Below are positions 1-59,969 of a stretch of DNA of 64,000 bases, in pieces. Numbering within the stretch: position 1 is the first letter of the stretch; each line of letters starts with the position of its first letter. A program made the translations under genes and the position numbers. The notes under the pieces were generated by a model. That model was given only the letters and a program-made list of their open reading frames with translations, was not told the DNA's origin and did no database searches. This DNA is from an uncultured Gammaproteobacteria bacterium (GTDB lineage: Bacteria > Patescibacteriota > Microgenomatia > UBA10105 > UBA927): assembly GCA_964349125.1 (NCBI GenBank), contig CAYGFH010000004.1, positions 42,921-106,920 on the forward strand. The letters are read 5' to 3'.

Positions 1-47
1 ACCCCATTTCTGGTGGTATAGGTGAATTACAATTCACCACTTTCAAA

Positions 48-1127
48 ATGCAGGCATTTACAAATCAGACTACATCACCACTTACCTGTGGTGGTATCAG
101 AGGAATAATTTGTCCATCCGGATATACATGTAGATACCCAGACGGGTCCACACGACCGCCCTATCCAGATGCTTCAGGAGTCTGTAGGACAGATAATCCC
201 TATCCTACTCCTACCTGTATCCCACAACCCGCGTGTATGGATCCGCTTCCGGGACAACCTGCATGTATGATTAAAATCCCAGAGGGTGGATGGTTGTGTC
301 CGAAGACTCCGACGCCGACTGCACTTCTCACTTGCGGCGGTATCAGAGGAGCAGTATGTCCATCGGGATATTCATGTATCTATTCCAATGGAACTACTCG
401 TCCGCAATATCCTGACGAAAGCGGCAAATGTATACTTCCGACCAAACTATACTCCTGCCAGTCATTATCGACCACACAATCAAGTTATTTTTCAATGTGT
501 GCAAAACAGGGGTATAGCGGCGTGTGTTTCAACAAATATACTGGCGTCTATCAGGGATGCACGAGGACTGGAAGTAATGATTGTACAGTCAATAATACCA
601 ATGCGGCACAAAATATACTTTGTCCCGCTGCAGTAACTCCAACACCCACGTGTATACCGCGTCCTGCATGTATGGATCCCCTCCCGGGACAACCTGCATG
701 TATGATTGATCTTCCTCAAGGTGGTTGGTTGTGTCCTCAAACACCGACACCAACTACTCAGTGCAAAACAGGTATCAATTCATTCTCAGTCAGTCAACCG
801 TGTAAGGATCCTAATACATTCGTGTCCGCAACATATTCTTGTCATGATGGCTACAGCGGCACTGTAGGTGGCGATATCCGCATGTGCCAAACATCAAATG
901 TACTCGCTGAGCTGGCCCAGAAGGCGTGTTCTGGGAGGACATCTTGCACCACTGCTAAGATCGGAGATCTTAACGGGGATAATATAGTAAATCTGTTTGA
1001 CTATAATATTCTTCTAAATAATTTTGGTAAAACTGGAACAGCAGGAATCATCAAAGGAGACCTGAACAAAGATGGTGTTATCAACGTGTTCGATTACAAT
1101 ATACTACTGCGAAATTTTGGTAGATAA
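48..1127 (+). CDS. Cys-rich repeat secreted protein with two C-terminal type-I dockerin repeats (5' end probably cut by window edge; frame is open back to nt 3)
   Basis: Internal duplications: TCGGIRG-x-CPSGY-C-Y--G-TRP-YPD-SG-C twice and TPTCIPxPACMDPLPGQPACMI-P-GGWLCP-TPTPT twice. C-terminal DLNGDNIVNLFDYNILLNNFG and DLNKDGVINVFDYNILLRNFG fit the Ca-binding dockerin repeat pattern. Confidence 0.7.
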   Translation: MQAFTNQTTSPLTCGGIRGIICPSGYTCRYPDGSTRPPYPDASGVCRTDNPYPTPTCIPQPACMDPLPGQPACMIKIPEGGWLCPKTPTPTALLTCGGIRGAVCPSGYSCIYSNGTTRPQYPDESGKCILPTKLYSCQSLSTTQSSYFSMCAKQGYSGVCFNKYTGVYQGCTRTGSNDCTVNNTNAAQNILCPAAVTPTPTCIPRPACMDPLPGQPACMIDLPQGGWLCPQTPTPTTQCKTGINSFSVSQPCKDPNTFVSATYSCHDGYSGTVGGDIRMCQTSNVLAELAQKACSGRTSCTTAKIGDLNGDNIVNLFDYNILLNNFGKTGTAGIIKGDLNKDGVINVFDYNILLRNFGR

Positions 1128-1134
1128 TTCGTTC

Positions 1135-1162
1135 TTGAAATACATATGACTATTGGTATACT
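1135..1162 (+). promoter_or_regulatory. sigma70-like promoter TTGAAA-16-TATACT upstream of the cohesin/dockerin gene
   Basis: -35 ttgaaa 1135-1140, -10 tatact 1157-1162, ATG at 1175 (very short leader). Confidence 0.45.
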
Positions 1163-1174
1163 CAACATATATAT

Positions 1175-2782
1175 ATGAATAATTCTAATACAGTCACATC
1201 GGTATGGAAGAAACTTATTATCCCGTTTTTCCTGCTCGTGGTAGTTGTGCTTGGCATAGTGTACGTGAGAAAACCTCAGGACATTAGAAATAAAGCGGCA
1301 GTTTCAGGTTCATCGATCTCTATGAACCCGAGTACGATAACAGCGCGACCGGGATCTAATTTTTCAGTTGGAGTAGTTTTAAATGCAGGACCCGATAGCG
1401 TGTCCGGTGTAGAACTACATATTGGGTTCGACCCTAGCCTCGTACGAATCAAAGGGTTTACAGCAGGAACGCCGCTTCCTGTTGTTCTCTCTCCCCTTTC
1501 TATCCAATCAGGAACAGCCACAGTTACTCTCGGCGCTCAACCAAATGCTCCGCTAAAAGGGACAGATATCATTGGTCGCTTCACAGTTGAAACACTATCG
1601 AACGGACCGAGTTCTACTATACGTGTATTAAACAGCACCATGGTTGCAGCACTCGAAAAACCGACAAATACCCTTGTTTCATCATCTGGCATCACTATAT
1701 ATTCGACAAACGGGACTGCTTCAGGAACCCCAACTCCAACTCCACATAACTGGTGCGCAGGACCAAATGGGTCTGCATGTGCATGGGATTGCAATAGATG
1801 CACAGCGTCTGGTATTTGCACAAAAATGGGATGTCCTGATGTGACGGGGACATGCCAAAATAACACGTGCGTTAAACCACCTGCCACACCTACACCAACG
1901 CCATACACACAAGCAGGTTGTGTTAGAGGTGGATGTAATGGTGAACTGTGTGTATCTGAAACGGCACGTAATATGAACACCACCTGCGATGTGAAACCTC
2001 AGTATGCGTGTTTCAGAAGCGCTCGCTGTGAAAAACAGTCAAATGGTCAATGCGGATGGACACAAACAAGTGAGCTGAGGCAATGTCTGGAGCAGTATAT
2101 TACTCCTACCCCAACCCCGCCGGTAGGCTGTTTCTACCAGCAAGTTCAGTGTATTCAGGCACCATGTAATCCGATATTAGTTTGTCCGACAAAGACACCA
2201 ACGCCGACAGTATCGCCAACTCCAATTACATCAGGCTCACAGGTTATTGACCTGAGAGTTAAGCTGGCAGGCGTCACAGACGGATCTGCAAACGGCGCAA
2301 AAGTTGGAATCAAGTTTGTGAAACTCGGTGGAGAGACACTGCAATTATCCGGGGCGCTTCCTTTGGTGCATGTCGGAAATGGGATATATAAAGCAGAAGC
2401 AACATTGACCAATTCTCTACCCTTTGGCACGAAATTTAGAATAAAAGTAAAAGGCGAAAAGCACCTTACTTCCGAATTCTGTTTCCAGGTTGGGCAGACC
2501 GGACCCTGTAAGGATAATGAATATATAACCATGCCAAATTTCATTGCTCAGACCTATGGCTTTGATCTGACAGGCATCCCACTCCAACCGGGTGATGTAC
2601 CACCTCAGGATGGTAAAGTTGATGCAACAGATTTCAATGCCATAAAGTCACTCATGTCCAAACTATGCTCAGAGTTGACTGCACAGGACAAACTCAAAGC
2701 CGATTTGGACTATAACGGCTGTATAACTGTCAAAGATATATTCCTGATCAGACAAACATTGGAAACACGATACGATGAATAA
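1175..2782 (+). CDS. Signal-anchored surface protein: N-terminal cohesin-like domain, Cys-rich modules separated by PTPTP linkers, C-terminal dockerin
   Basis: N-terminal hydrophobic helix LIIPFFLLVVVVLGIVYV. Segment GVELHIGFDPSLVRIKGFTAG within a ~140-aa beta-rich domain fits the cohesin pattern. C-terminal DGKVDATDFNAIKSLM...DLDYNGCITVKDIFLIRQTL is a dockerin-like repeat pair. Confidence 0.6.
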   Translation: MNNSNTVTSVWKKLIIPFFLLVVVVLGIVYVRKPQDIRNKAAVSGSSISMNPSTITARPGSNFSVGVVLNAGPDSVSGVELHIGFDPSLVRIKGFTAGTPLPVVLSPLSIQSGTATVTLGAQPNAPLKGTDIIGRFTVETLSNGPSSTIRVLNSTMVAALEKPTNTLVSSSGITIYSTNGTASGTPTPTPHNWCAGPNGSACAWDCNRCTASGICTKMGCPDVTGTCQNNTCVKPPATPTPTPYTQAGCVRGGCNGELCVSETARNMNTTCDVKPQYACFRSARCEKQSNGQCGWTQTSELRQCLEQYITPTPTPPVGCFYQQVQCIQAPCNPILVCPTKTPTPTVSPTPITSGSQVIDLRVKLAGVTDGSANGAKVGIKFVKLGGETLQLSGALPLVHVGNGIYKAEATLTNSLPFGTKFRIKVKGEKHLTSEFCFQVGQTGPCKDNEYITMPNFIAQTYGFDLTGIPLQPGDVPPQDGKVDATDFNAIKSLMSKLCSELTAQDKLKADLDYNGCITVKDIFLIRQTLETRYDE

Positions 2783-3989
2783 AATCCTGCCAAAAACTAT
2801 ATCCTTCGTTGCGATCCTGCTGCTTTTCCTTACAGCTGGTGTATCAAAGGCGTTTGCAACTCCTAGCGTCCAATTTGATAAAACATCTGTCTCTGTTGCA
2901 CAAGATGCCACTTTTCAACTAAAAGTTAACATAAATGTGGATGCGCACACAGTTTTGGGAAGTGATGCTGTTATCAATTACGCCGGAAGCGATCTGGAAG
3001 TAATATCCATAACAAACGGTGGATTTTTTCCCGAATTCAACAGTGCCAATGCTGCATCAGGGAGACTTGAAATTCATGGGTATACATCTTCCACAAATGA
3101 CAGCCGTACAGGAAACGGTATACTTGCCACTATCGTATTTAAGGCAAAAAAAGGAAGCGGAAGCAGCGCTGTAACGTTTGCATGCACAGGATCAGGTAAC
3201 GATACAAATATTTTAACGACAGCAGGACAGAATGTATTGGCGTGCTCACAGACAAATACAGCCGGCATATCATACACAGGTGTCACGAATACCAACACAC
3301 CTACCCCTACAACTGGATCAGGTAATACTCCCACCCCAACACAAAAGCCTTCAGGTAACACTGCTCCGAATTGTTCCAATCTGTATACTGATATATCCTC
3401 TGCTGTGGGAGCACCTCAGACTATCACACTGACCTGCTCCGGTGCTGATCCGGGTGGATATTTGAACGCTGCGGAATTTGTATTTGGAGATGGTACCACC
3501 CAGGTGGTAGAGAAAAATGCAGGGAGCCCGGGCTCCATTGCTACTGCTCATACGTATACAACAATCGGGACACTCGGCGCATCATGCAGAGTCCGCGATA
3601 ACGATGGGATATGGTCAACCATACCCGATTCATGTAAGAAAGTTGTAAGTATAAAACCAGGATCCACCCCCACCCCTACACAAGCAAGATCATATGGAGA
3701 TAAGGGCGTGACCACCACCATCAAGGTAAGCGGGCCAACACCCACACCAACTAGAATTGTTGTGAGTATTATTTCTGACACTCCGGAACCTACCGTTTCG
3801 ATTGATGAAGGCATTGCTGAACCTACGCTATACCCAGAGGAAGAATCTATAGAATCAGACACCACAACTTCGTCCAACAGAATATGGTGGATCGTAGGAG
3901 GCATCATAGCCATATTGCTTGCATTCCTATTACTGCGACGTAAGGGACCACCACCTTCAGGAGGACAAATCCCAATCGCAAATGTATAA
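2775..3989 (+). CDS. Surface protein: signal peptide, cohesin-like domain, PKD-like domain, PT-linkers, C-terminal transmembrane anchor
   Basis: Signal peptide ending VSKAFA. Cohesin-like segment YAGSDLEVISITNGGFFPEF. PKD-like FVFGDGTT...AHTYTTIGTLGASCRVRDNDG. C-terminal TM IWWIVGGIIAILLAFLLL followed by basic residues. 8-nt overlap with the upstream gene suggests an operon. Confidence 0.6.
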   Translation: MNKILPKTISFVAILLLFLTAGVSKAFATPSVQFDKTSVSVAQDATFQLKVNINVDAHTVLGSDAVINYAGSDLEVISITNGGFFPEFNSANAASGRLEIHGYTSSTNDSRTGNGILATIVFKAKKGSGSSAVTFACTGSGNDTNILTTAGQNVLACSQTNTAGISYTGVTNTNTPTPTTGSGNTPTPTQKPSGNTAPNCSNLYTDISSAVGAPQTITLTCSGADPGGYLNAAEFVFGDGTTQVVEKNAGSPGSIATAHTYTTIGTLGASCRVRDNDGIWSTIPDSCKKVVSIKPGSTPTPTQARSYGDKGVTTTIKVSGPTPTPTRIVVSIISDTPEPTVSIDEGIAEPTLYPEEESIESDTTTSSNRIWWIVGGIIAILLAFLLLRRKGPPPSGGQIPIANV

Positions 3990-6843: not shown

Positions 6844-8748
6844 ATGTCTCACGATGATCACGGTCATGACAGCGGGCCACCCAAGCCGACTAATCCCTTC
6901 TTTATAATAGGCGTGATTTTATTTGTTGCTTTTTTTGCTTTACAGGTCCCCTCCGGTAAGAAGCCTTCAACAGGAATATCCCCTATATCCCAGCCAAGAA
7001 TAACTCCCACGAGAACCCAAGGCATACCAATTAAAGAAGAAGGTCCCACATACCAAAAATCCATATTAAATGAAGGAATGACCCCACCACCTGAAGCTGT
7101 TGTGACGCCTCAAGTCGCCGGAATCGCCCCCTGGGGGTATAAAATTCAATTCATGAACGCTGTATCCTCAGTGTTAAAAGAAGTAGAAGGAGTTTCGCAT
7201 CAGCAAAAATATACCATAAAAACACCAAATCTTGGTCCGGAGGCATATCAGATAGAAGAGGCGGGAGTCAGACTTACACCGAAAGAAATACAGGATTCAA
7301 ACTTACGCCTTATTACCTACCTTCAAAATTTAACCGCCAACCATACACAATGTTTTTACGATGAAGAAAATGGGTTCGAACATCATCCTGACGTTGGTAT
7401 ATTTAAAGCCGCTGCTCTCCGATGGCATTATGCGCGCGGTGGGTCAAAAATCCTACAGTCAACGATATCAACGGGACAACTGCCACTCGAGGGGTACGAT
7501 TTGTTCAATACACTGCCTGATGAGAAAGTAACGCCTGATAATGGCCTGGCATGCTACACACAGCACGAAGGAAAGTTCACGGGATTATATGAGCTAAGCA
7601 CGGGCGATGAAGAGTACGATGGAGCAAGCCACCCGCCAGCAACATGGACACCTGACCTGTTTTGCCCAAATGAGACACTCAAATACTTGGAATGCCTTGC
7701 TGAACAAGCCAGATGCAATGCGGCAACGAGGGCAAAAAATAAAAATAACGACTGCAGCGCAGACTACTGCTCACTTGTGTGCAGCGGTGATGCCCATACG
7801 GTGTATAGCACGAATCTGCCAGGCGCCATGAAAGAGAAGGATATTACGGATAATATCGGATATCTGCAACCGGGCAATCCGCAAGGATATACCTACACGC
7901 AGTTTGACGATGCATTCAACTTTAACAAAGAACACGGCATAAACGAACAAGGCCAAACAAATGAACTTATGATATTTTCAGGTGACATTCTTACAGAAAA
8001 ATCTGTGTATGCAGAACTTGCTCGTATTAAGGAACATATCCATGCATTCCAATGTGTACTCCTCCCAAAAGAAGCTCAAGACCCAAATGTACCATGCCCT
8101 ACTCCCGAGCCTGAGCAATCACTCGCCGGAATTCGCAATGAGGCTGATGCAGTCGAAGATCGAGAGCCCGCACAGTGCAGTGCCGGTAAGCCGATAAGCA
8201 ACGCAGTTTCACGGGGGGGTCTAGATGCCGCAATCACAGAGGCAGCAGCCTGGGCAAAAATACCGGCGTGTGTTTTGAGGGGTATAGCATTTATTGAAGG
8301 AGCAACCATTGAGATGGAAAAACCAGCATGTATACCAAACCAGTGTGGAGCAGCCGGGCCCTTTCAGATTAGTATTGGTCAAGATACCTGCGGCAAGAAG
8401 ACCTGTGATGAGTGTGGTCCAAATTGGAAAGGTCGAGCATGTAATGACGAATCGTGGGCATTAAAAAAAGCAGGCGGAACTGTTGCCGATGCGTGTAATA
8501 TTAAAATTGCAGCGAAGGCAGCTGCTGCCATCGTTGACGGAAAAGCAAATGGATTCGGTGTACCGTTCACTCACAATACATCTAGCTCAATTGCATCGCA
8601 AAAACGAACGATTATCACAGCAGCCGACGCGTACTACGGTGTGACCTCACCAATAGAACGCCTTGGTGGTCTCTCGTACGGCGAATATGTGTATAAAACC
8701 TGTGATCCATCGTATACCTCGCATGTTGAACATGGATTCCCGTATTAA
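6844..8748 (+). CDS. Membrane-anchored extracytoplasmic protein with Cys-rich C-terminal region resembling a lytic transglycosylase (SLT-like) domain
   Basis: N-terminal TM FFIIGVILFVAFFAL. C-terminal GIAFIEGAT...QCGAAGPFQI resembles the SLT catalytic E...AGAxGLMQ pattern. The rest has no recognisable motifs. Confidence 0.4.
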   Translation: MSHDDHGHDSGPPKPTNPFFIIGVILFVAFFALQVPSGKKPSTGISPISQPRITPTRTQGIPIKEEGPTYQKSILNEGMTPPPEAVVTPQVAGIAPWGYKIQFMNAVSSVLKEVEGVSHQQKYTIKTPNLGPEAYQIEEAGVRLTPKEIQDSNLRLITYLQNLTANHTQCFYDEENGFEHHPDVGIFKAAALRWHYARGGSKILQSTISTGQLPLEGYDLFNTLPDEKVTPDNGLACYTQHEGKFTGLYELSTGDEEYDGASHPPATWTPDLFCPNETLKYLECLAEQARCNAATRAKNKNNDCSADYCSLVCSGDAHTVYSTNLPGAMKEKDITDNIGYLQPGNPQGYTYTQFDDAFNFNKEHGINEQGQTNELMIFSGDILTEKSVYAELARIKEHIHAFQCVLLPKEAQDPNVPCPTPEPEQSLAGIRNEADAVEDREPAQCSAGKPISNAVSRGGLDAAITEAAAWAKIPACVLRGIAFIEGATIEMEKPACIPNQCGAAGPFQISIGQDTCGKKTCDECGPNWKGRACNDESWALKKAGGTVADACNIKIAAKAAAAIVDGKANGFGVPFTHNTSSSIASQKRTIITAADAYYGVTSPIERLGGLSYGEYVYKTCDPSYTSHVEHGFPY

Positions 8749-13038: not shown

Positions 13039-16000
13039 ATGAGTCGCGAAATGATGTCTCCGTTGGCCGGTTCCATTATGATTGATGGGGTCGATCCCTT
13101 TTTACCTCCAGAAAGCATGGAGCACATGCAATTTGATGATGCTATTTTACGTCGCCAAAGAATTATATTTTCATCAGAAATCGTACCGAGTATTCAAATA
13201 TTCTTATCTGGGGGCACAAACGAAGAAAGACAAGACGCTTATGCAAAACTGTCGTTCGCATTATGGGGTATATATAGATTAAAAAATATTCAAACGGAAT
13301 CTGAATATCCGTGGGAACAGTCTTGGCTTGCCTCTCAGGGACAATCAGAATGGACACCGAATCTGATAGAAAAGTCCCCTTCACAATATGAAATGGCACA
13401 TACCTATTTTTCAAACCTACTGATACCAGCAGATGTATTGGACAGTATGGATTTGCTTCACCTTTCCCAAAAAGAACATTCAGGAATACAGGGGGTTAAA
13501 AAAATCATACATGACAGCACATCACAATTTTTAGCAAGTTTACCGACCGACGCAATGATTACATTTGGCATGGAAGCATTGTCAACTACATTCGCCAATT
13601 CCAATGACTCAATCAGAACAATTGTCACGTCAGCCTTATATCCCCTGATAACCCAATACAAAGCGCAACACTCCAGTGTTGTGTATCATTTCGCTAATCA
13701 GATGCGGGTTGCACGCGAATATGTCACCTCGGTACTTAAAAACTTTTTCGACTCACCCCTGCGCCAACAGTTACTGTCAGAGACGATGAATATACATGAT
13801 CTTGATGCCGCTCATGTTGTAAGCAGTGGATTGTCTGCTGCACTTGACGAGCACGCGTTTACTACTGGATTGCTTCAGTTTAAAAGCACGGTACACGGTC
13901 AAAAAAATGGGGGCATTCTCGCATCTGCTGCATTTTTGACTCCTTTCCCCTTTTTCTATACACAGGCTAGTACCCGCATCGGAGAGCTACTTCGCACACG
14001 TATTGCGTCCAGAAACATTCACGAAATCGCGCCGTCACTTACCGAAAAACACGCCAGAGTCCGCGAAGCGGCATATGCATATCTAAACTTACCTGAATCT
14101 GCAGACATTGCAGAAATACAAAAAGCAGAAGCTAAAATAATTGAGGCAGGCAATACACGGAACCTCTCGCTACTTAGAACGAATCAGCAAACATCTAAAG
14201 ATCGCGCCTGGTTTAAAAGCCTACCGTCGAGCATAGCGTTATTATTGTCCGCTACACGAAATGACGAGCTCATCCAATATGTAACCCCTGTCGCACTTAC
14301 AAGCGGCTCTATGCTAACGGCAATAGGTGACAGCACATCAATGCTCGTTATGCGAAGTATAAACCGAGCGGATACCGATGCCGCCTACACGACCGTCCGA
14401 CAAGCACTTACTCATCTCACAAAACGATTTGGAGAGTTACACCTACCACCTCCCGGGACTGATTATGGTCCATTACCCAATCGAATAACTGTGACCATAA
14501 ATCGCACGAAAAACGGTCAGTTGCCAGTGTTTTCTCAATTACAGTTAGATCCGGGTATAACCGTGTTGACAGGAGAAACCGGTAAAGGAAAATCCACCGT
14601 GATGGATATCATTCACGGAATACACGCACTCGGAAACTACGCCACCATAAACGCTGCCGATATGAATGATATTAGAAATTTCTACGCGTATGACCGTTGG
14701 CAACGTCGTGTAAAGACGGTCTCGGTCAACTTCTCTTTCGGCAGCACACTATCGAGTGAAATCACTCGAAAAATAGTAGCTGGAGAACATGATGGTATTC
14801 AACGAACGATCAATGACTTATTAAGTGACGAACATTCTAATCATCAATATTTGTCACATCTGCTTGACTTATTGACTGATCCGTTAAAAAATCATGAACT
14901 TGCAACCGTACTAGAATCCTGGAAGCAGTCATTATCAACAGAAACGCATACAGAACAGACTCAACCGCTCATAGCCGCGCTTAATGCAGTAATTAAGCAA
15001 TATTTTTCTCAATTCTTTGACGCGAATGAACATGATCGTATAGATCAATTCATGACGACAACCTTTTCAACGAACATGGCAGCTTCTACCGGACAACGAG
15101 CACGAATTGGCCTCGCATTATCGCTTATGTCAGATGCCGATATGTATTTATTCGATGAGATTTCAGGAAACCTAGATACCAAAACCACCGTAAAAATTGC
15201 AGATATACTTCTACAATTCATTGCATCACATAAACAATCGAAATTTATACTTTCTATTCATGATCCAATATTTCTTAATAAAATTTGGGCGTTTGGACCA
15301 CAAAGAATATACGACTTTGATACCTCATCTGTTTGGGAAAACTCTACTGATGTTGAAAATTTTGTGGATACAATACAAAGCAGGATACTACAGACGGAGC
15401 AGGCACAGTCATTTACAGCTGAATCTGCACATGAGTTACTACAGGCACTTTCACATCATCTTGACGCATGGGATAAGGAGAGTCTCAATGAATACACCCT
15501 CGAACAATTAATACATACGGTTGATATTGTACGGGTTATGTTATCAAAGACGAATATGCATGTATTACAGCATAATATCAACCCATCCGCTCGATTTGAT
15601 GAGTATTTTGATAGTGTGATTGCCCCGATTCACAAAACGCTATATCGCATCGCGGACACAGTATTTACTAAGCGCATTTGGGAACTGCTCAAGAATAATA
15701 ATACAATGCCCTGGTATACACTCAATCAAATTCACAAGCTCGTATGGCAAATGAATCAAATTGGACTGATCTCAAAAGGCATCATTCCTGAATCAACAAG
15801 AACGGCTCGAGATTATTCTAAAGATGCATTTTTTAATTGGCAGGACTATGTTCGTGGTAAACGAGTCATGGTAAAAGATTTTACAGGACTCGCTAACCAT
15901 AAATACCAGGTAAAATCACTATTTGCAGATACAACATTTGAAAGAAATATTCGACATCTTCGTATAAATCATCTTGCAAAAATATTTTCCGACTTCAGAT

Positions 16001-16407
16001 CTACACCATCATATATCACACAGACTGTTTCTACAAAACTGTTACGAAGTGATTTGCTGTCCGGATTACTTTCAGGTAGCGCAGTATCCAATCAATCGAA
16101 CTACGGAATGGATATATTAGGTCAAAGAGTGTCGAGACTGGTGGCTCACTTACTCATGGAAGTGAAGACCAATCCTGTGTTTGCCGAGGAGACCGAACGC
16201 ATTATACGTAACATTACGACAGAGATCTTGCCGGATTTTTTGAAGCAGCGGGGTGTAAAAATGACCAACGTATCACAATGGATGTCTCATTGGGTGGCTC
16301 AAAACGATCCTCGCGTTCAGTCTATTTTGTTAACGGAACTGCCGAAATATCCGTCTATAGCACATGAATATATTTCTCTGCTTAAAAAATGTGATCAGAT
16401 ACGATAG
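13039..16407 (+). CDS. Large (1122 aa) soluble protein with central ABC-type ATPase domain (RecF/SMC/AAA_21-like) flanked by ~490-aa N- and ~370-aa C-terminal regions of unknown function
   Basis: Walker A ITVLTGETGKGKSTV, signature-like STGQRARIGLALSL, Walker B/D-loop MYLFDEISGNLD and H-loop FILSIHD in the expected order and spacing; no TM segments. Confidence 0.7.
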   Translation: MSREMMSPLAGSIMIDGVDPFLPPESMEHMQFDDAILRRQRIIFSSEIVPSIQIFLSGGTNEERQDAYAKLSFALWGIYRLKNIQTESEYPWEQSWLASQGQSEWTPNLIEKSPSQYEMAHTYFSNLLIPADVLDSMDLLHLSQKEHSGIQGVKKIIHDSTSQFLASLPTDAMITFGMEALSTTFANSNDSIRTIVTSALYPLITQYKAQHSSVVYHFANQMRVAREYVTSVLKNFFDSPLRQQLLSETMNIHDLDAAHVVSSGLSAALDEHAFTTGLLQFKSTVHGQKNGGILASAAFLTPFPFFYTQASTRIGELLRTRIASRNIHEIAPSLTEKHARVREAAYAYLNLPESADIAEIQKAEAKIIEAGNTRNLSLLRTNQQTSKDRAWFKSLPSSIALLLSATRNDELIQYVTPVALTSGSMLTAIGDSTSMLVMRSINRADTDAAYTTVRQALTHLTKRFGELHLPPPGTDYGPLPNRITVTINRTKNGQLPVFSQLQLDPGITVLTGETGKGKSTVMDIIHGIHALGNYATINAADMNDIRNFYAYDRWQRRVKTVSVNFSFGSTLSSEITRKIVAGEHDGIQRTINDLLSDEHSNHQYLSHLLDLLTDPLKNHELATVLESWKQSLSTETHTEQTQPLIAALNAVIKQYFSQFFDANEHDRIDQFMTTTFSTNMAASTGQRARIGLALSLMSDADMYLFDEISGNLDTKTTVKIADILLQFIASHKQSKFILSIHDPIFLNKIWAFGPQRIYDFDTSSVWENSTDVENFVDTIQSRILQTEQAQSFTAESAHELLQALSHHLDAWDKESLNEYTLEQLIHTVDIVRVMLSKTNMHVLQHNINPSARFDEYFDSVIAPIHKTLYRIADTVFTKRIWELLKNNNTMPWYTLNQIHKLVWQMNQIGLISKGIIPESTRTARDYSKDAFFNWQDYVRGKRVMVKDFTGLANHKYQVKSLFADTTFERNIRHLRINHLAKIFSDFRSTPSYITQTVSTKLLRSDLLSGLLSGSAVSNQSNYGMDILGQRVSRLVAHLLMEVKTNPVFAEETERIIRNITTEILPDFLKQRGVKMTNVSQWMSHWVAQNDPRVQSILLTELPKYPSIAHEYISLLKKCDQIR

Positions 16408-29640: not shown

Positions 29641-29748
29641 GGTATCATCATACCCCAACAGATATAACTCCGTCTATATACCCCAGGAGCGCTTGACAAA
29701 ATACTATTCCATACTCCAGACTTAGACTGATTACCCAGGTTGCGGTGT

Positions 29749-31629
29749 ATGAAGAAACGACGAAGATCTATTCAACCAAAACAGAATTACCTTGGATTAC
29801 TCATCCTAGTCGGTATCTTTCCTATACTAATGTATGCAGCGTACAGACAAGTACAAATTCGATCACAGGCCACTGATTCTATCAATATAAATGAAACATA
29901 TGGCCCCGGAGAACTCGATGATATAACGATCATCCCATCTATTTCTATTTCACAAGGTACTCCTATAACAACATTTACAGTATCTGGGAATCGCGCATCG
30001 ACATACACAACGCTTAGCGCAAAGCATTATTACTATTATCAATCCGGTTCTTCCTCGTTTTCCCCCGTCCTATCGACAACACCATTTTCATTTACAAAAA
30101 CAGACGATACTTTTGTGGGCACTATACCAAATCTACGCTCCGGGTGTATCGATTTGTTGTCAGATACTACCTATGTTGCTAGCTTCTGCGTAGCCGTGAC
30201 TTCGCAAAATGGCTCAAACACAAACATGAGTCCACAAATTCCAGACACCCGTTTGCCATACAAATACGTATCGGGCACCTATCAGTGGGGATATTCACGA
30301 CCGGACGGTTGGCTAAGTGGAACACGGTCATACACCGATGCATATAGCATTCTATCCTCCACACTACCGTTTGACAAAACCATCACCCCATATTATGAAA
30401 CTACCGGGAATTTTAATCCGACGAATTATTACTGGACTGATACTATCACGAATGCGGCATATAACTCCCACGCGCTCAATAACATTTATGTAACCTCTGT
30501 CCCAACGATAAACATGACCTGTGCGAATGACTGGGTCATGATGGGTGTTTTTCCACAAATATCTTTTCCAGCGACAGGAACGTTCAGCATGACGAAAGCA
30601 AACTGGATAACGCCCCCGGAATGCGTATTTTACACATATCCCGTAACCCATCCTATTAGTAATTTTTCTGAGCTGCGCAATACATACGTACGGCTTATCC
30701 CATACCAGGGAGTCACACCCACGCCAACTGCTACCCCAAAGCCAACGTCCACTCCCACGCCATCAGCTGTGCCACCCACACCGACACCAACGCCTAAACT
30801 ATATACAATTCGTACACCCAATGGCGGAGAAACATTAATCGTTGGGCAACCATATACCATAAGTTGGACAGGCACGGGGTTAACATCCCTGCGTATTGAT
30901 TTGTATAACTACGTAAATGGAGTATATAAAGGCTTTAGTTATATAGCGCTCGATGTATCAGCTGGAACCGGTTCATACACGTGGATTGCATCGAAAAAAG
31001 GCTACACAGAGGGAGTCTACAAAATCTCAATAAGCGGAACGACATCATCAGGCGCGCAGCAATCTGACCTGTCTGACAGCTATTTTTCTATCGTTGATTC
31101 TCCAAGCTCAACACCATCGCTAACGCCTACAAATTCACCCACCTCAACCGTCACACCGATATCTGCGGCAACGAACACCCCTACCAGCACAGTTACTCCA
31201 ACTTCAACTCCCATCCCAACTGTGAGCTCCACCAAAATACATATATACGCAGCAGGAACACCGTATACTGGTGTGTATCCAACTATGGAGTTACGAATCA
31301 ATGGGCAAACCGTAAAGCGGTTTACAGATATTCGGGGTAACCCTGCACTTCGTTTGTTTACACGATATACGTATACGTTACCCCGAGCACTAGCTCCTCA
31401 AGATGTCTTGCGTGTCCATTATACTAATTCTTCACAAGCTGACGGGAATCTCAAAAGGAAGCTAAGGATCGACCGTGTGGTGATACACAACGTAACCTAC
31501 CAATCTGAAGCATCCACAACATATTCCACCGGCACTTGGTCATCATCAACGAATTCATGCAGTAGGCGCTATGCGAAATCAGAGTGGCTTCACTGTAACG
31601 GATACTTCCAATATACGATTGGATTATAA
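29749..31629 (+). CDS. Signal-anchored surface protein with PT-rich linkers
   Basis: N-terminal KKRRR plus TM. TPTPTATPKPTSTPTPSAVPPTPTPTPK and SPTSTVTP linkers. No catalytic motifs. Confidence 0.55.
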   Translation: MKKRRRSIQPKQNYLGLLILVGIFPILMYAAYRQVQIRSQATDSININETYGPGELDDITIIPSISISQGTPITTFTVSGNRASTYTTLSAKHYYYYQSGSSSFSPVLSTTPFSFTKTDDTFVGTIPNLRSGCIDLLSDTTYVASFCVAVTSQNGSNTNMSPQIPDTRLPYKYVSGTYQWGYSRPDGWLSGTRSYTDAYSILSSTLPFDKTITPYYETTGNFNPTNYYWTDTITNAAYNSHALNNIYVTSVPTINMTCANDWVMMGVFPQISFPATGTFSMTKANWITPPECVFYTYPVTHPISNFSELRNTYVRLIPYQGVTPTPTATPKPTSTPTPSAVPPTPTPTPKLYTIRTPNGGETLIVGQPYTISWTGTGLTSLRIDLYNYVNGVYKGFSYIALDVSAGTGSYTWIASKKGYTEGVYKISISGTTSSGAQQSDLSDSYFSIVDSPSSTPSLTPTNSPTSTVTPISAATNTPTSTVTPTSTPIPTVSSTKIHIYAAGTPYTGVYPTMELRINGQTVKRFTDIRGNPALRLFTRYTYTLPRALAPQDVLRVHYTNSSQADGNLKRKLRIDRVVIHNVTYQSEASTTYSTGTWSSSTNSCSRRYAKSEWLHCNGYFQYTIGL

Positions 31630-56524: not shown

Positions 56525-56546
56525 ACTACTCACTACTCACTACTTA
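56525..56546. repeat. Right inverted repeat (actactcactactcactact) of the four-helix-bundle cassette
   Basis: Reverse complement matches the gtagtga array at 56128-56146. Confidence 0.75.
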
Positions 56547-58774
56547 ACTATCTCCTCCAATATTTCTTCTTTTGTCACAAGGCCGGTTATCACGAATTTT
56601 ATTATTCCTTTTCGATCGACGAATATGTGAGTCGGAGAGGTTCTATACATCACAGAATCAACCAATATCCCATCCGGATCAGCTACTATCCGCACATCGT
56701 ATGAGCCGCGTTTCATAAATGTCGCAACTGACGCAGTACTTTCCTGTGGAACAATCACAATAGTATGCACTGAACTCAGCGTTTTCAACGTATCCAAAAT
56801 GGATATCTGTGGAGATGTGATCGGCGACCATGTGTTTAGAAGTGTAATGAGCGTCGGCTTACCACGAAGATCAAGTGATGAAATAAATTTCCCATCAAAT
56901 GGAAAGCGGAAGTACTGCATTTCTTTGCCTATCACACCTGCATTTTTGACACCGCCCGTATCGTTTAACAGACCCGCGACGCGAATGACAGTGCGCGTTT
57001 CTGAAAAATCAAATAACGGTAGTAACCATCGCCCGATTTGAATACCAAACGCCCTCTCCATCTGAATGTTCTGGGCAATCGGTGAAATGTTGTTTACATC
57101 AAATATATCGCTGATTACCGTTTTATACCCAAATGCTTTCACGCGCACATAATATTTCCCGCTGGGAACGGCAAACCCATACTCGCCTGATTTCCCCGTA
57201 CTAAATGGATTTTTTTGTCCGTATGATTTTCCGTCCCACTGTACAAACTGCGCTGTGGCATTGTCCAACACGAACATAGTCACTTCTGCATGTTCAATAG
57301 GCTTTGCATTTGAATCAAGAATCACACCACCGGACAGAACGGAAACTTGCATAACCTCGGTGACGGTTTTGTTTGCGGCGCCATCAATGGCCACACCAAA
57401 GACCGTATAGGTACCAGCCTGATCAAATCGCATTGCCGCACGCCATAGACCTGTATCAATGTTTTTTTGCGCAGTCATATCTGCTACTTCACCCCGACTG
57501 TTTTCTACTGAGTACTTCACGGATACAGGACCACCAATAATTGACGTGGTAAACACATACTCCATTCCCGAAACCACATGCATATTGCCACCGACAGGTT
57601 CAATAACCTGTGAACCGAATGTGACTATGGTGGCACCTACCTGCGGAGGCATGCGATCAACGGTGTAACTGCCGATTTTTTGCGTGGACGTATTGCCTTT
57701 ACCATCAAGGCTTCTGATAACCAACGCATAACTTCCATCGTCGAATTGATATGGCGTAAAAGTGAATGGTATCGACGTCTTACCGAACGCTCGAATGCCA
57801 TCCACCGGTACGAAGTTGATACCACCATCAAGCGAATACTCCAGAGTGGTAACGCCGCTACCGTCTGTCGCGGTACCGACAATCTCCGGCGGTTCTGTAT
57901 AGATTTTTTCGAACTTCGTCTTTATGCTTATCCGAGGACCAACTCTGTCCGGGATCGGTGTGGGCGTAGGGCTCGCGAAAACAATGCGAACTGTTCCTGT
58001 AGTCGTTGTCGTTGTCGTACTTGACGCCGCGTTTGTTACAAACGTGTTTTCTCCGGAATCTCCTGTGTTACCCGCCGCATCCGTACTTTGGACGGAATAG
58101 TGATACGTAGTCAGTGCGGATAGACTGTCTATGGTGACACTATGACTGGTCGTGAGCGATGTATCTGTTTTTGTGGCACCGTAATCTCCGGTCGTCCCGT
58201 ACTGAACGATAGATGTAGCCGCCTCATCTGTCGTCCACATAATGCGCGCACTCGTGGCGCCAATATCAGTGACTGTCAATGAAGATATAGTCGGTGCACT
58301 TGAATCACCACCACCTCCGGTAATGGAAGTCCCTAGTGATCCGGAACAGGACGTCGCATCCGCACCACCCTCATCGGACGATAATTGTATCCCCCAATTA
58401 GCAGCCCCTGCTGTCACATTACCACTTGTCACCTGGATGGAGAATGAATAGGTTTCTCCTGCATCCACACTTCCACCTGTCATGGTCATTGTAGAAGAAT
58501 CAATCGAGTTGCTCCATCCGGGCGAAGATGGGCTTCCTGCAAACGTAAAGTTTCCCGAAGGTACAGTAAGTTTGATCCAAGATCCTGCTTCGGCATTATC
58601 GGTATTATTTGTGACGCTAAACGTTATAGTGTTTGTAGTTTCCGCGGGAACACTATCCATGTCTACTGTTGCACCACAGGACGAGATGGAGGCAAACACT
58701 GTGTGTGGAGTTATTAAAAACAGCGTGGCACAGAAGGCATATACAATCGTATGGGCAATACGTGGCAGTTTCAT
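56540..58774 (-). CDS. Secreted multi-domain protein: FN3/Big-like repeats, CarboxypepD_reg-like domain and C-terminal Cys-less thioredoxin-like fold (paralog B)
   Basis: Signal peptide MKLPRIAHTIVYAFCATLFLITPHTVFA. FN3-like IMWTTDEAATSIVQYGTT. NTWSPITS where WCxxC is expected. ATG 58774 preferred because the 58816 start leaves no divergent promoter space. Confidence 0.6.
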   Translation of the reverse strand: MKLPRIAHTIVYAFCATLFLITPHTVFASISSCGATVDMDSVPAETTNTITFSVTNNTDNAEAGSWIKLTVPSGNFTFAGSPSSPGWSNSIDSSTMTMTGGSVDAGETYSFSIQVTSGNVTAGAANWGIQLSSDEGGADATSCSGSLGTSITGGGGDSSAPTISSLTVTDIGATSARIMWTTDEAATSIVQYGTTGDYGATKTDTSLTTSHSVTIDSLSALTTYHYSVQSTDAAGNTGDSGENTFVTNAASSTTTTTTTGTVRIVFASPTPTPIPDRVGPRISIKTKFEKIYTEPPEIVGTATDGSGVTTLEYSLDGGINFVPVDGIRAFGKTSIPFTFTPYQFDDGSYALVIRSLDGKGNTSTQKIGSYTVDRMPPQVGATIVTFGSQVIEPVGGNMHVVSGMEYVFTTSIIGGPVSVKYSVENSRGEVADMTAQKNIDTGLWRAAMRFDQAGTYTVFGVAIDGAANKTVTEVMQVSVLSGGVILDSNAKPIEHAEVTMFVLDNATAQFVQWDGKSYGQKNPFSTGKSGEYGFAVPSGKYYVRVKAFGYKTVISDIFDVNNISPIAQNIQMERAFGIQIGRWLLPLFDFSETRTVIRVAGLLNDTGGVKNAGVIGKEMQYFRFPFDGKFISSLDLRGKPTLITLLNTWSPITSPQISILDTLKTLSSVHTIVIVPQESTASVATFMKRGSYDVRIVADPDGILVDSVMYRTSPTHIFVDRKGIIKFVITGLVTKEEILEEIVK

Positions 58775-58814
58775 ATATATAATTTTGCTATCCTTCACTA
58801 TAATAGTAGCATTC

Positions 58815-59969
58815 ATGAAACATTACCATAAGGTCATTCTCCTGTGTATATCGCTTGCCGCTGCGCTATGCATAAGCGAATGGTACATCCGTACACAGTA
58901 CCCTCAACTGACACTCGAGGCGGCGCAAAGCTTTAGCTTTAACTGTTTTGAAGAAGGGGAACATCGCTGGATAAAACTTGCGGCCAATAAGACCTGTGAA
59001 CTTAAATCTGCTTGGAATGCATTCCCTCCGATTGCCATACAAACAAATTCCATAGGACTACGAAATCGGGAAGTTTCTATGCCCAAACCCGCAAATACAA
59101 AACGCATTGTCTTTGTCGGTGATTCATTTACCATGGGGTGGGGCGTCAACGAAGAGGACACGTTCGTACGGACATCTGAGACGCTTCTGAACAAACAGGG
59201 ACTGGCATTCCCAATCGAAACGGTTAATGCCGGATTCTCTGCAGCTGGACCCAGCGGCTACTATATATATCTCAAATATTTCGGATTGGATCTGGATCCT
59301 GATGTTGTTGTGGTCGGTTTTTTTATAGGGAATGATATAACGGGAAGAACCGATGTGGAGTGGATACAAAAAGATGCAAACGGCATGCCCGACGTGGTCC
59401 GGTCAAAAACAACGTATATAGATTGGAACGGTGCACTGAGGTTTAAGGATACTCCGATCCGCTACAGCATGCCGGTCCTGAACAATTCCCACGCATTTCT
59501 GCTTTTGGCAAATACAATCAATCCACTCACCACATCAACAGACCCGTCAAAGGAACTGGTGACATTGACCTCGTGTCTATTTAGACCTGAGTGTCATGAT
59601 CTCGATACGGCAAAATCGGAGGTGAAATTTTTGTTTGAGGGCATACAGGAATTGGTCGAGAGTAAAGGAAAAAAACTTGTTGTGGTCATGATCCCGGATG
59701 ATTACCAATTCAATACGTATCCCGCATTCCGAAGTAAAAAATTATTACCGCTTCTCCCATCGGAGAGAATGCATGTCAACAATGAGTTTGCTTCCTTTTT
59801 TGAAAGTGAAGGTATTGACTACATAGATTTGCTGCCAATCTTTCTGGAACAGGCCAAAGAGCAACTATATATTCCTGATGACGGGCATTGGAACGCTGCA
59901 GGACATGCGTTTGCGGCATCTATCATCAGTGAGAAGCTTGCCAAGATACTGCAAGAAAAGGCACCATGA
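58815..59969 (+). CDS. SGNH/GDSL-like hydrolase (AlgX/DltD-like) membrane-anchored protein
   Basis: IVFVGDSFTMGWGV (block I Ser) and DDGHWNAAGH (DxxH block). Start at ATG 58815; the ORF-track start at 58482 overlaps the upstream gene in antisense. Confidence 0.6.
   Translation: MKHYHKVILLCISLAAALCISEWYIRTQYPQLTLEAAQSFSFNCFEEGEHRWIKLAANKTCELKSAWNAFPPIAIQTNSIGLRNREVSMPKPANTKRIVFVGDSFTMGWGVNEEDTFVRTSETLLNKQGLAFPIETVNAGFSAAGPSGYYIYLKYFGLDLDPDVVVVGFFIGNDITGRTDVEWIQKDANGMPDVVRSKTTYIDWNGALRFKDTPIRYSMPVLNNSHAFLLLANTINPLTTSTDPSKELVTLTSCLFRPECHDLDTAKSEVKFLFEGIQELVESKGKKLVVVMIPDDYQFNTYPAFRSKKLLPLLPSERMHVNNEFASFFESEGIDYIDLLPIFLEQAKEQLYIPDDGHWNAAGHAFAASIISEKLAKILQEKAP

Follow-up and report, generated by a model that had tools for sequence, protein, structure and literature searches.

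A three-gene cohesin-dockerin cassette in Gottesmanbacteria as a candidate two-tier surface display system

Among described cohesin-dockerin assemblies, the sca cluster of Ruminococcus flavefaciens exemplifies tiered docking: the ScaA dockerin binds the ScaB cohesin and the ScaB dockerin in turn binds the ScaE cohesin, while the anchor additionally carries CttA, a docked binding protein without enzymatic function (PMC2930009). This cluster appears to be the closest functional analogue of a three-gene cassette found at the left end of a 64-kb stretch of DNA (contig CAYGFH010000004.1, hereafter the window) from Candidatus Gottesmanbacteria, a tiny-genome bacterium within the Candidate Phyla Radiation (CPR, or Patescibacteria). 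Judged from sequence comparisons and predicted folds, the cassette would encode a non-cellulosomal two-tier cohesin-dockerin surface display system, a reading to which we give a probability of about 0.6. A membrane anchor (gene 3) would receive an adaptor (gene 2), which in turn would receive a variable tip protein (gene 1).

As in the sca cluster, co-directional genes encode a dockerin protein, a scaffoldin combining a cohesin with a C-terminal dockerin, and a surface anchor with a single cohesin. The dockerins of ScaB and CttA come with an X module, as does the dockerin of gene 2. The two systems nevertheless differ in several respects. ScaE is sortase-linked through LPXTG, whereas gene 3 has a C-terminal transmembrane helix, and ScaA and ScaB are polyvalent and serve dozens of enzymes, whereas the scaffold proteins of the cassette have one cohesin each and no carbohydrate-active enzyme (CAZyme) is attached. 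Sequence similarity is limited to generic Pfam families, and the comparison is between a CPR bacterium and a cellulolytic Firmicute.

Scaffoldin classes described elsewhere include the monovalent adaptor, with one dockerin and one cohesin, and the anchoring scaffoldin without S-layer homology domains (nonSLH), whose anchoring elements are LPXTG, LysM, a C-terminal transmembrane helix or others (PMC11557425). Gene 2, with one cohesin (CohA, residues 46-177) and one dockerin (DocB, residues 471-535), is a monovalent adaptor in this sense, and gene 3, which joins a cohesin (CohB) to a conserved C-terminal transmembrane helix followed by RRK, is a nonSLH-anchoring scaffoldin. The systems of that classification also have dockerin-fused glycoside hydrolases (GH) and a primary scaffoldin; the cassette has neither. 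Indeed, with no CAZyme, no carbohydrate-binding module (CBM) and no multi-cohesin scaffoldin, the cassette does not qualify as a cellulosome.

Most described non-cellulosomal cases are isolated modules or toxin/glycoside hydrolase complexes, whereas the cassette is a conserved syntenic set of anchor, adaptor and tip with fused and split variants. That cohesins and dockerins occur outside cellulosomes is itself known (Peer et al. 2009, as cited in PMC10066038), and the cassette likewise uses both folds outside plant-cell-wall degradation. The structural matches of CohA include the modules 2xdh of Archaeoglobus fulgidus and 2jh2, 2vo8 and 2w1n of Clostridium perfringens.

Architecture of the cassette

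Three co-directional open reading frames (ORFs) lie on the + strand of the window at <1..1127, 1175..2782 and 2775..3989. The original prediction, that three such genes carry complementary modules, is borne out by the ORFs, by Pfam, by the fold of CohA and by family profiles. Pfam profiles recover the expected cohesin or dockerin in gene 1, in the cohesin part of gene 2 and in gene 3, with the gene 2 dockerin recognized through its orthologs and a family profile. The genes had also been described as overlapping, which holds for genes 2 and 3 but not for genes 1 and 2, which are spaced by 47 nt. The overlap measures 8 nt (ATGAATAA, 2775..2782, +) and joins the gene 2 stop to the gene 3 start. 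Many relatives have overlaps of 8-11 nt, and a few have a longer one or none, a pattern suggestive of translational coupling. The products of genes 1, 2 and 3 contain 32, 24 and 6 cysteines and ~20% Pro plus Thr; together with Pro/Thr (PT) linkers and signal sequences, this composition points to extracellular proteins.

Gene 3 (2775..3989, +) encodes a membrane-anchored single-cohesin protein of 404 residues. It opens with a signal peptide (2775..2858) evident from hydropathy, whose AxA site (…VSKAFA-TPSV) is conserved in 30 homologs. CohB follows (residues 29-172, 2859..3290) and scores 38.4 bits against Pfam Cohesin (PF00963; cutoff 24.1, E 1.7e-9), a family precomputed on most gene 3 homologs as well; a gene 3 family profile searched against the sequences of solved structures reached no solved cohesin and matched through its PKD part alone. 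This PKD-like domain (residues 195-295, 3357..3659) contains four conserved cysteines. Its PKD_4 score is 21.4 bits, below the cutoff of 27; the family profile matches the PKD domain of ColH (E 5.4e-5), and the PKD families PF18911 or PF00801 are precomputed on many homologs. The protein ends with a transmembrane helix (IWWIVGGIIAILLAFLLL, residues 369-387), an RRK stop-transfer motif and a short Pro-rich cytoplasmic tail (3879..3986), and neither an LPXTG motif nor an SLH match was found in it. An alignment of 30 sequences keeps the same order throughout: AxA signal, cohesin, PT linker, four-cysteine PKD-like domain, second linker, and transmembrane helix with RRK and Pro-rich tail. The signal peptide, cohesin and C-terminal helix foreseen for gene 3 are recovered, and so, probably, is the PKD domain.

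Gene 2 (1175..2782, +) encodes the adaptor of 535 residues. A hydrophobic helix (residues 13-31) and the sequence QDIRNKAA (residues 35-42), together at 1211..1300, form either a signal peptide or a signal anchor. CohA (1310..1705) reaches the Pfam Cohesin threshold marginally (24.2 bits, cutoff 24.1). In the AlphaFold2 (AF2) model, whose mean predicted local distance difference test (pLDDT) score is 78.8, a transmembrane helix spans residues 5-32 and a beta domain with pLDDT >90 coincides with CohA. Of the two cohesins, the fold test covered CohA, and both AF2 and Foldseek give it the nine-stranded jelly-roll of cohesins: the top 28 matches in the PDB are all cohesin modules, at template-modelling (TM) scores of 0.7-0.78 (best E 1.3e-9, TM 0.77). 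Cys-rich modules with TPTPTP linkers follow (residues 185-345, 1727..2209); they are modelled with low confidence and show at residues 246-308 a weak match to an eight-cysteine cluster (heavy_Cys, PF27854).

The C-terminal part of gene 2 consists of an X module and DocB. The X module, an immunoglobulin (Ig)-like beta-sandwich (residues 356-470, 2240..2584), is modelled as all-beta with pLDDT ~95 and is co-conserved with DocB in all orthologs, always directly N-terminal to it. The original prediction had listed an N-terminal anchor and, correctly, the cohesin, Cys-rich modules and dockerin of gene 2, and had overlooked this sandwich. DocB (2585..2779) is recognized by Pfam in orthologs, by a family profile and by alignments. 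In orthologs the module scores 44.3, 40.6 and 33.3 bits against Dockerin_1, and a 15-sequence profile of the C-terminal 200 residues finds solved type I dockerins in the PDB (E 1.6e-8), with further weak matches to 2b59, 5k39/5m0y and 3kcp in the dockerin region. The three-helix arrangement of dockerins is present in the AF2 model at residues 484-534. The second calcium loop is canonical (DLDYNGCITVKD) and is joined to the first by a long Cys-containing linker. The C-terminal tail, QTLETRYDE, is conserved across orthologs. The coding of its end (…TRYDE*) is shared with the first residues of gene 3 (MNK…) at 2768-2782, and the overlap, instead of a role in the dockerin, may account for part of this conservation.

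An Ig-like module contiguous and co-conserved with a dockerin recalls the X-dockerin dyads of type II and III systems, such as the XDoc of Clostridium thermocellum CipA with SdbA (2b59) and CohScaA-XDocCipB (5m0y), and here too the dyad is assigned to the joint with the cell-anchored cohesin. In contrast to those dyads, the X module has no sequence relative in the PDB, and the best matches of both the dockerin and CohA, the latter by fold, are type I.

Gene 1 is represented in the window by its C-terminal 374 codons (<1..1127, +). It runs off the left edge, with no in-frame upstream stop in the window and its start 679 nt further upstream, as can be read from L001, a metagenomic contig identical to the window from L001 position 8827 (related loci are denoted by L numbers). 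There the full gene (L001:8148-9953) encodes 601 residues, or 621 from an upstream GTG. The description of gene 1 as Cys-rich repeats with a pair of canonical dockerin repeats therefore stands for the part in the window; outside it lie the gene start, a hydrophobic signal at the N-terminus and a pair of head domains, all of which the description missed. The AF2 model comprises an N-terminal helix, a small domain (residues 35-100), a confident beta domain (105-250), an alpha/beta domain (479-545) and the dockerin.

The repeats of gene 1 are of two kinds, each present as a pair that also shows up as a DNA repeat. Module A (76-169 and 322-415, spanning 76..415, +; 71% nucleotide identity) has the consensus LTCGGIRGxxCPSGYxCxY...PDxSGxC, with no relative in the PDB or Pfam. 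Module B (203-320 and 638-755, spanning 203..755, +; 78% identity) has the consensus TPTCIPxPACMDPLPGQPACMIxxPxGGWLCPxTPTPT. The Cys-rich region as a whole has no match among PDB sequences and in Pfam only sub-threshold matches to Lustrin_cystein, DUF7640 and CC. The alpha/beta domain stands directly before the dockerin (756..956, +; pLDDT ~90) and shows weak, below-cutoff similarity to DUF7640 (E 0.004-0.008). The dockerin itself, DocA, occupies the extreme C-terminus (957..1124, +), where Pfam Dockerin_1 (PF00404; 26.1 bits, cutoff 22.9) and the class alignment agree.

Module classes and their probable pairing

The dockerins of this locus and its relatives fall into two sharply distinct classes, and so do the cohesins. 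DocA is symmetric, with GDxNxDGkVNiFDYN..L..FGK repeated twice at the protein end; in gene 1 this yields two near-identical F-hand loops, GDLNGDNIVNLFDYNILLNNFGK and GDLNKDGVINVFDYNILLRNFGR. DocB, borne by gene 2 and by the fused type described below, reads PGDxxPQDGkVD..D, then a long linker, DLDYNGCvxVxD and the QTLETRYDE tail, and is always preceded by the sandwich. Against the F-hand pattern D-x-[ND]-x-[DN]-G-x-x-x-x-x-D, both loops of DocA are canonical and DocB conforms in part. CohA is confined to gene-2-type proteins and CohB to anchors, with cross scores of <=13 bits. Class hidden Markov models (HMMs) separate the classes at ~100 versus <=29 bits, a separation that is descriptive, as the models were trained on the same loci that they score; gene 1 DocA, for instance, scores 102 bits with its own model and 14 bits with that of DocB. 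These models detect no further DocA, DocB, CohA or CohB ORF in the 64-kb window.

The proximal joint, between X-DocB and CohB, is marked by gene order and by covariation. The X-DocB dyad is a large family (129 clusters at 50% identity with E<=1e-30), always C-terminal, in proteins of 170-920 residues. An X-DocB gene directly precedes every gene 3-type anchor examined with upstream sequence except the divergent L012, usually abutting or overlapping it. In a mirror-tree comparison pairwise identities co-vary between X and CohB (r 0.91) and between DocB and CohB (r 0.78), in support of a proximal unit of X, DocB, CohB and PKD. For the distal joint, of the 13 loci whose adaptor carries CohA, 10 have an adjacent DocA gene, including the distant L032 and L034, as against 0 of the 6 with a cohesin-less middle protein (Fisher p 0.003, uncorrected for phylogeny). 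From genomic co-occurrence, fused and split forms and co-divergence, we infer that DocA pairs with CohA and DocB with CohB.

It could be argued that no pairing occurs at all, the modules serving as Ig-like spacers and calcium-binding stabilizers in three merely co-located surface proteins, and many non-cellulosomal cohesin and dockerin modules are reportedly without a demonstrated partner. This is highly improbable, as the adjacency and overlap of X-DocB and CohB genes, the joint appearance of DocA and CohA and the existence of fused and split alternatives would then be hard to explain.

Fused and split forms of the locus

The same cassette is present in related genomes, which belong to Candidatus Gottesmanbacteria and to Patescibacteria metagenome-assembled genomes. 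Across Gottesmanbacteria it occupies one orthologous site, with a divergent Wzy_C gene upstream and the flavokinase side downstream. Two forms can be distinguished. The three-gene form occurs in eight genomes (the window with L001/L002, plus L025-L031), and the two-gene form, an X-DocB protein followed by the anchor, in six loci with upstream sequence (L003, L007-L011). Relative to the latter, the three-gene form has the DocA and CohA classes added. The X-DocB proteins of the two-gene loci contain no cohesin and vary in their N-terminal part, which is a gene 1 head in L003, L007, L008 and L009, Beta_helix/NosD in L010 and NPCBM_assoc in L011. In L003, for instance, one 1006-residue, cohesin-free protein joins gene 1 residues 2-320 to gene 2 residues 338-534, the X-DocB part. 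By the Rosetta-stone argument this fusion suggests that genes 1 and 2 form a functional unit, and the DocA-CohA joint stands where L003 has a covalent link.

Further arrangements were seen beyond these two forms. On the far side of Wzy_C, L025:1930-4936 encodes a TIG-domain protein with a weakly DocA-like C-terminus and then a gene 3-like paralog with PKD and transmembrane parts. In a more distant lineage (L032:4100-9430 and L034:1-5676) a bigger cluster occupies another genomic setting and comprises, in order, a dockerin protein (Coh+X+Doc in L034), a Coh-X-Doc adaptor, a small cohesin-like protein, an anchor with signal peptide, cohesin, PT linker and transmembrane helix, an fn3 protein with one dockerin-like repeat at its end, and a GH39 gene.

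Proposed assembly

On the preferred reading, gene 3 would be exported through its cleavable AxA signal and held by its C-terminal membrane helix, with CohB carried outward at the distal end of a PKD and Pro/Thr stalk. The X-DocB dyad of gene 2 would plug into CohB, and its N-terminal CohA would be held out on the Cys-rich, PT-linked stalk. The symmetric DocA of gene 1 would then plug into CohA, leaving two head domains and the Cys-rich modules facing outward. The N-terminal signals of genes 1 and 2 would be cleaved, and all three proteins would share one polarity, N-terminus distal and C-terminus proximal, matching the fused relatives. The variable head of gene 1 is most likely the outermost part of the assembly, a putative binding or adhesion head.

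The tier order first proposed for these genes fits the module classes, gene adjacency, the co-occurrence of DocA and CohA, the L003 fusion and the divergence breakpoint described next. If left uncleaved, however, the N-terminal anchor then assigned to gene 2 would conflict with a protein held by docking alone.

Divergence among close relatives

Compared with its nearest relatives, L026 and L027, the locus is conserved on both sides of the cassette and within the proximal part of the cassette. Identities are 89-93% for an S58 peptidase, 70-76% for Wzy_C, 86-88% for flavokinase, 78-87% for YdjM, 92-93% for YkuD and 99% for NTP_transferase. Gene 3 (90-93%) and the X-DocB part of gene 2 (91-92%) fall in the same range, whereas gene 1 is only 53-55% identical. 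The breakpoint sits within gene 2, where identity drops from X-DocB through the middle region (79-81%) to residues 1-195 with CohA (59-60%). The tip and the CohA socket thus appear to form a hypervariable island, and the anchoring joint follows the pattern of the housekeeping flanks. A fast-evolving tip and CohA unit on a conserved anchoring joint suggests the tip as the part that meets the outside world.

The divergence also bears on whether the cassette is a carbohydrate-scavenging mini-cellulosome, whose heads would bind or cut polysaccharide instead of attaching to a host cell. The cargo of X-DocB in relatives lends this some weight, as it includes Beta_helix/NosD, GH16 (P0188), GH28 (P0183), NPCBM_assoc, CARDB and Kre9_KNH; the related clusters L032 and L034 adjoin a GH39 gene, and a secreted CBM60 protein is encoded elsewhere in the window. 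The lack of any glycoside-hydrolase context, claimed in the original prediction, accordingly holds for this locus and not for the X-DocB family at large. However, none of the three proteins matches a profile of a glycoside hydrolase, polysaccharide lyase, carbohydrate esterase or CBM, Foldseek finds no enzyme or CBM fold for the gene 1 head in the PDB, and each scaffold protein has a single cohesin. Tip hypervariability in near-identical genomic backgrounds is, moreover, more typical of recognition proteins. A scavenging role is quite unlikely on balance.

Observations against the tiered order

Several observations weigh against the proposed anchor, adaptor and tip chain. At the level of modules, DocB of this genome scores 20.1 bits against Dockerin_1, below the cutoff of 22.9, and its first calcium loop is atypical (GDVPPQDGKVDATD, GDVPPQDGKVD), with a one-residue insertion and a proline in place of the position-3 asparagine. 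Neither gene 1 nor gene 2 shows a clear AxA site at its N-terminal helix; if these helices are uncleaved, each protein has a membrane tether of its own and the linear, tiered arrangement breaks down. In the mirror-tree comparison DocA correlates with CohA (r 0.55) no better than with CohB (r 0.61), a result probably explained by saturation of the distal parts at 45-60% identity. CohA loci without an adjacent DocA gene (L005, L033 and L035) break any rule that every CohA adaptor has one. The history of the locus is also complex: the three-gene loci are not monophyletic on a gene 3 neighbour-joining tree (7/200 bootstraps), so a single gene-fission event is rejected and the fused and plug-in states would have interconverted more than once. 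Finally, the sole Foldseek match of the gene 1 head in the PDB, the luminal domain of V-ATPase Ac45/ATP6AP1 (TM ~0.55, 9-12% identity), is too weak a basis for assigning a function.

The N-terminal helices lead to a different geometry, in which those of genes 1 and 2 are retained as signal anchors and all three proteins are integral to the membrane, tied by whatever cohesin-dockerin contacts occur into a membrane-proximal complex in cis beneath the wall, with no extended stalk. In this direction point the strong hydrophobicity of both N-termini (Kyte-Doolittle 2.3-2.75 over 19 residues), the missing AxA site, the AF2 helix that extends through the conserved motif [DE][IL]R.[KR]A, and the start of CohA merely ~13 residues past the gene 2 helix. 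Retained helices, however, would pin the gene 1 head and CohA to the membrane and force the Cys-rich and PT stalks to loop back, and the fused relatives keep the head N-terminal and X-DocB C-terminal. The motif also argues for a different role, as it recurs behind the hydrophobic helix of many otherwise unrelated secreted proteins of the lineage, which fits a general export signal. A membrane-proximal complex of this kind is therefore rather unlikely.

Instances of the motif are QDIRNKAA in gene 2 (1277-1300), IELRKRAA in gene 1 (L001:8205-8240) and QVQIRSQA at ~29854, whereas gene 3 carries the classical AxA signal. The QVQIRSQA protein (ORF 29740-31629) is a secreted protein with CBM60 and Kre9_KNH domains. 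It may be that [DE][IL]R.[KR]A is a lineage-specific export or cleavage signal.

The gene counts raise the possibility of competitive or open docking, in which DocA and DocB both target CohB, or DocA proteins find other docking sites, and CohA recruits dockerins encoded elsewhere, so that no ordered chain of the three genes exists. Adaptors such as those of L005, L033 and L035, the many different cargo proteins of X-DocB and the undecided mirror-tree would all be in keeping with it. So would L031, where two DocA-bearing genes (431 and 198 residues; L031:3900-5940) precede one CohA adaptor, an arrangement implying that tips compete for, or take turns on, a single socket. On the other side, no DocA gene adjoins any of the 6 anchors without a CohA adaptor, the sequences of DocA and DocB differ greatly, and steep divergence is common to CohA and gene 1 and does not extend to CohB. 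The window, moreover, offers no further partner of either class. Docking without a fixed order seems unlikely for these reasons, and the ordered chain remains preferred.

Genomic setting

Upstream of the cassette, just outside the window, lies a membrane protein of the Wzy_C/O-antigen-ligase family (50 bits; L001:6891-8012, minus strand), a divergent neighbour kept in both the two-gene and the three-gene forms. The O-oligosaccharyltransferases PglL and PilO are members of the same Pfam family, and the neighbour could thus glycosylate the TPTPTP stalks, as a candidate O-glycosylation enzyme. Downstream follow, in order, a convergent flavokinase, YdjM, YkuD, NTP_transferase, an unannotated gene of ~600 residues and secE-nusG. 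The unannotated gene (6844-8748, +; 634 residues) matches nothing in Pfam or NCBIfam; it keeps its place ahead of secE-nusG throughout the related loci but is unevenly conserved, with 86% identity to L027 and 39% to L026. With NCBIfam, neither this ORF nor the S58 peptidase nor the Wzy_C neighbour could be classed more finely.

The spacer between genes 1 and 2 contains a sigma-70-like site (TTGAAA-16-TATACT with TG; 1135..1162, +) that matches by consensus alone and might act as an internal promoter of genes 2 and 3; in a promoter and terminator scan of the region, the number of sites was not above shuffled expectation. Scans of the 64-kb window for tRNAs and Rfam elements gave no match. Elsewhere in the window, a protein of 757 residues (56540-58816, -) with Pur_ac_phosph_N/fn3, Big_13, CarboxypepD_reg and a C-terminal Redoxin is a further candidate surface protein, and ~330 nt of its ORF are shared with a 495-residue ORF on the opposite strand (58482-59969, +). 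A further ORF of 1122 residues (13039-16407, +) has an ABC/SMC-type ATPase head at residues 500-750 between long unannotated flanks.

Implications for a possible role in partner attachment in the CPR

Type IV pili are implicated in the partner attachment of cultivated Saccharibacteria. To our knowledge, how CPR bacteria recognize and hold their partners is largely unknown outside these few cultivated representatives. Host attachment is a plausible candidate role for the cassette in a CPR bacterium. A search of the accessible literature found no such anchor, adaptor and tip cassette described for CPR or Microgenomates, an absence that is no proof of novelty.

A broader joint reading, tentative and rather doubtful as a whole, would make the locus an exchangeable partner-recognition device with a fixed chassis of anchor, X-DocB and CohB and a hypervariable tip and CohA socket. 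The tip unit, replaced or diversified between close strains, would set the host cell or surface. Lineages would toggle between fused attachment of the head and plug-in attachment through DocA and CohA. The [DE][IL]R.[KR]A signal and Wzy_C would share a surface-display pathway with the cassette.

Because fused and split variants both exist in nature, they offer a built-in control on module pairing, and the two small, apparently orthogonal pairs could serve as new connectors for protein display. The cassette would place adaptor and anchor logic of the cellulosome type outside Firmicutes and outside enzyme display. Taken together, the locus is a concrete, conserved candidate for partner attachment in the CPR, a putative three-part surface assembly with two apparently orthogonal joints, whose tip differs markedly between strains sharing 86-99% identity in most neighbouring genes.

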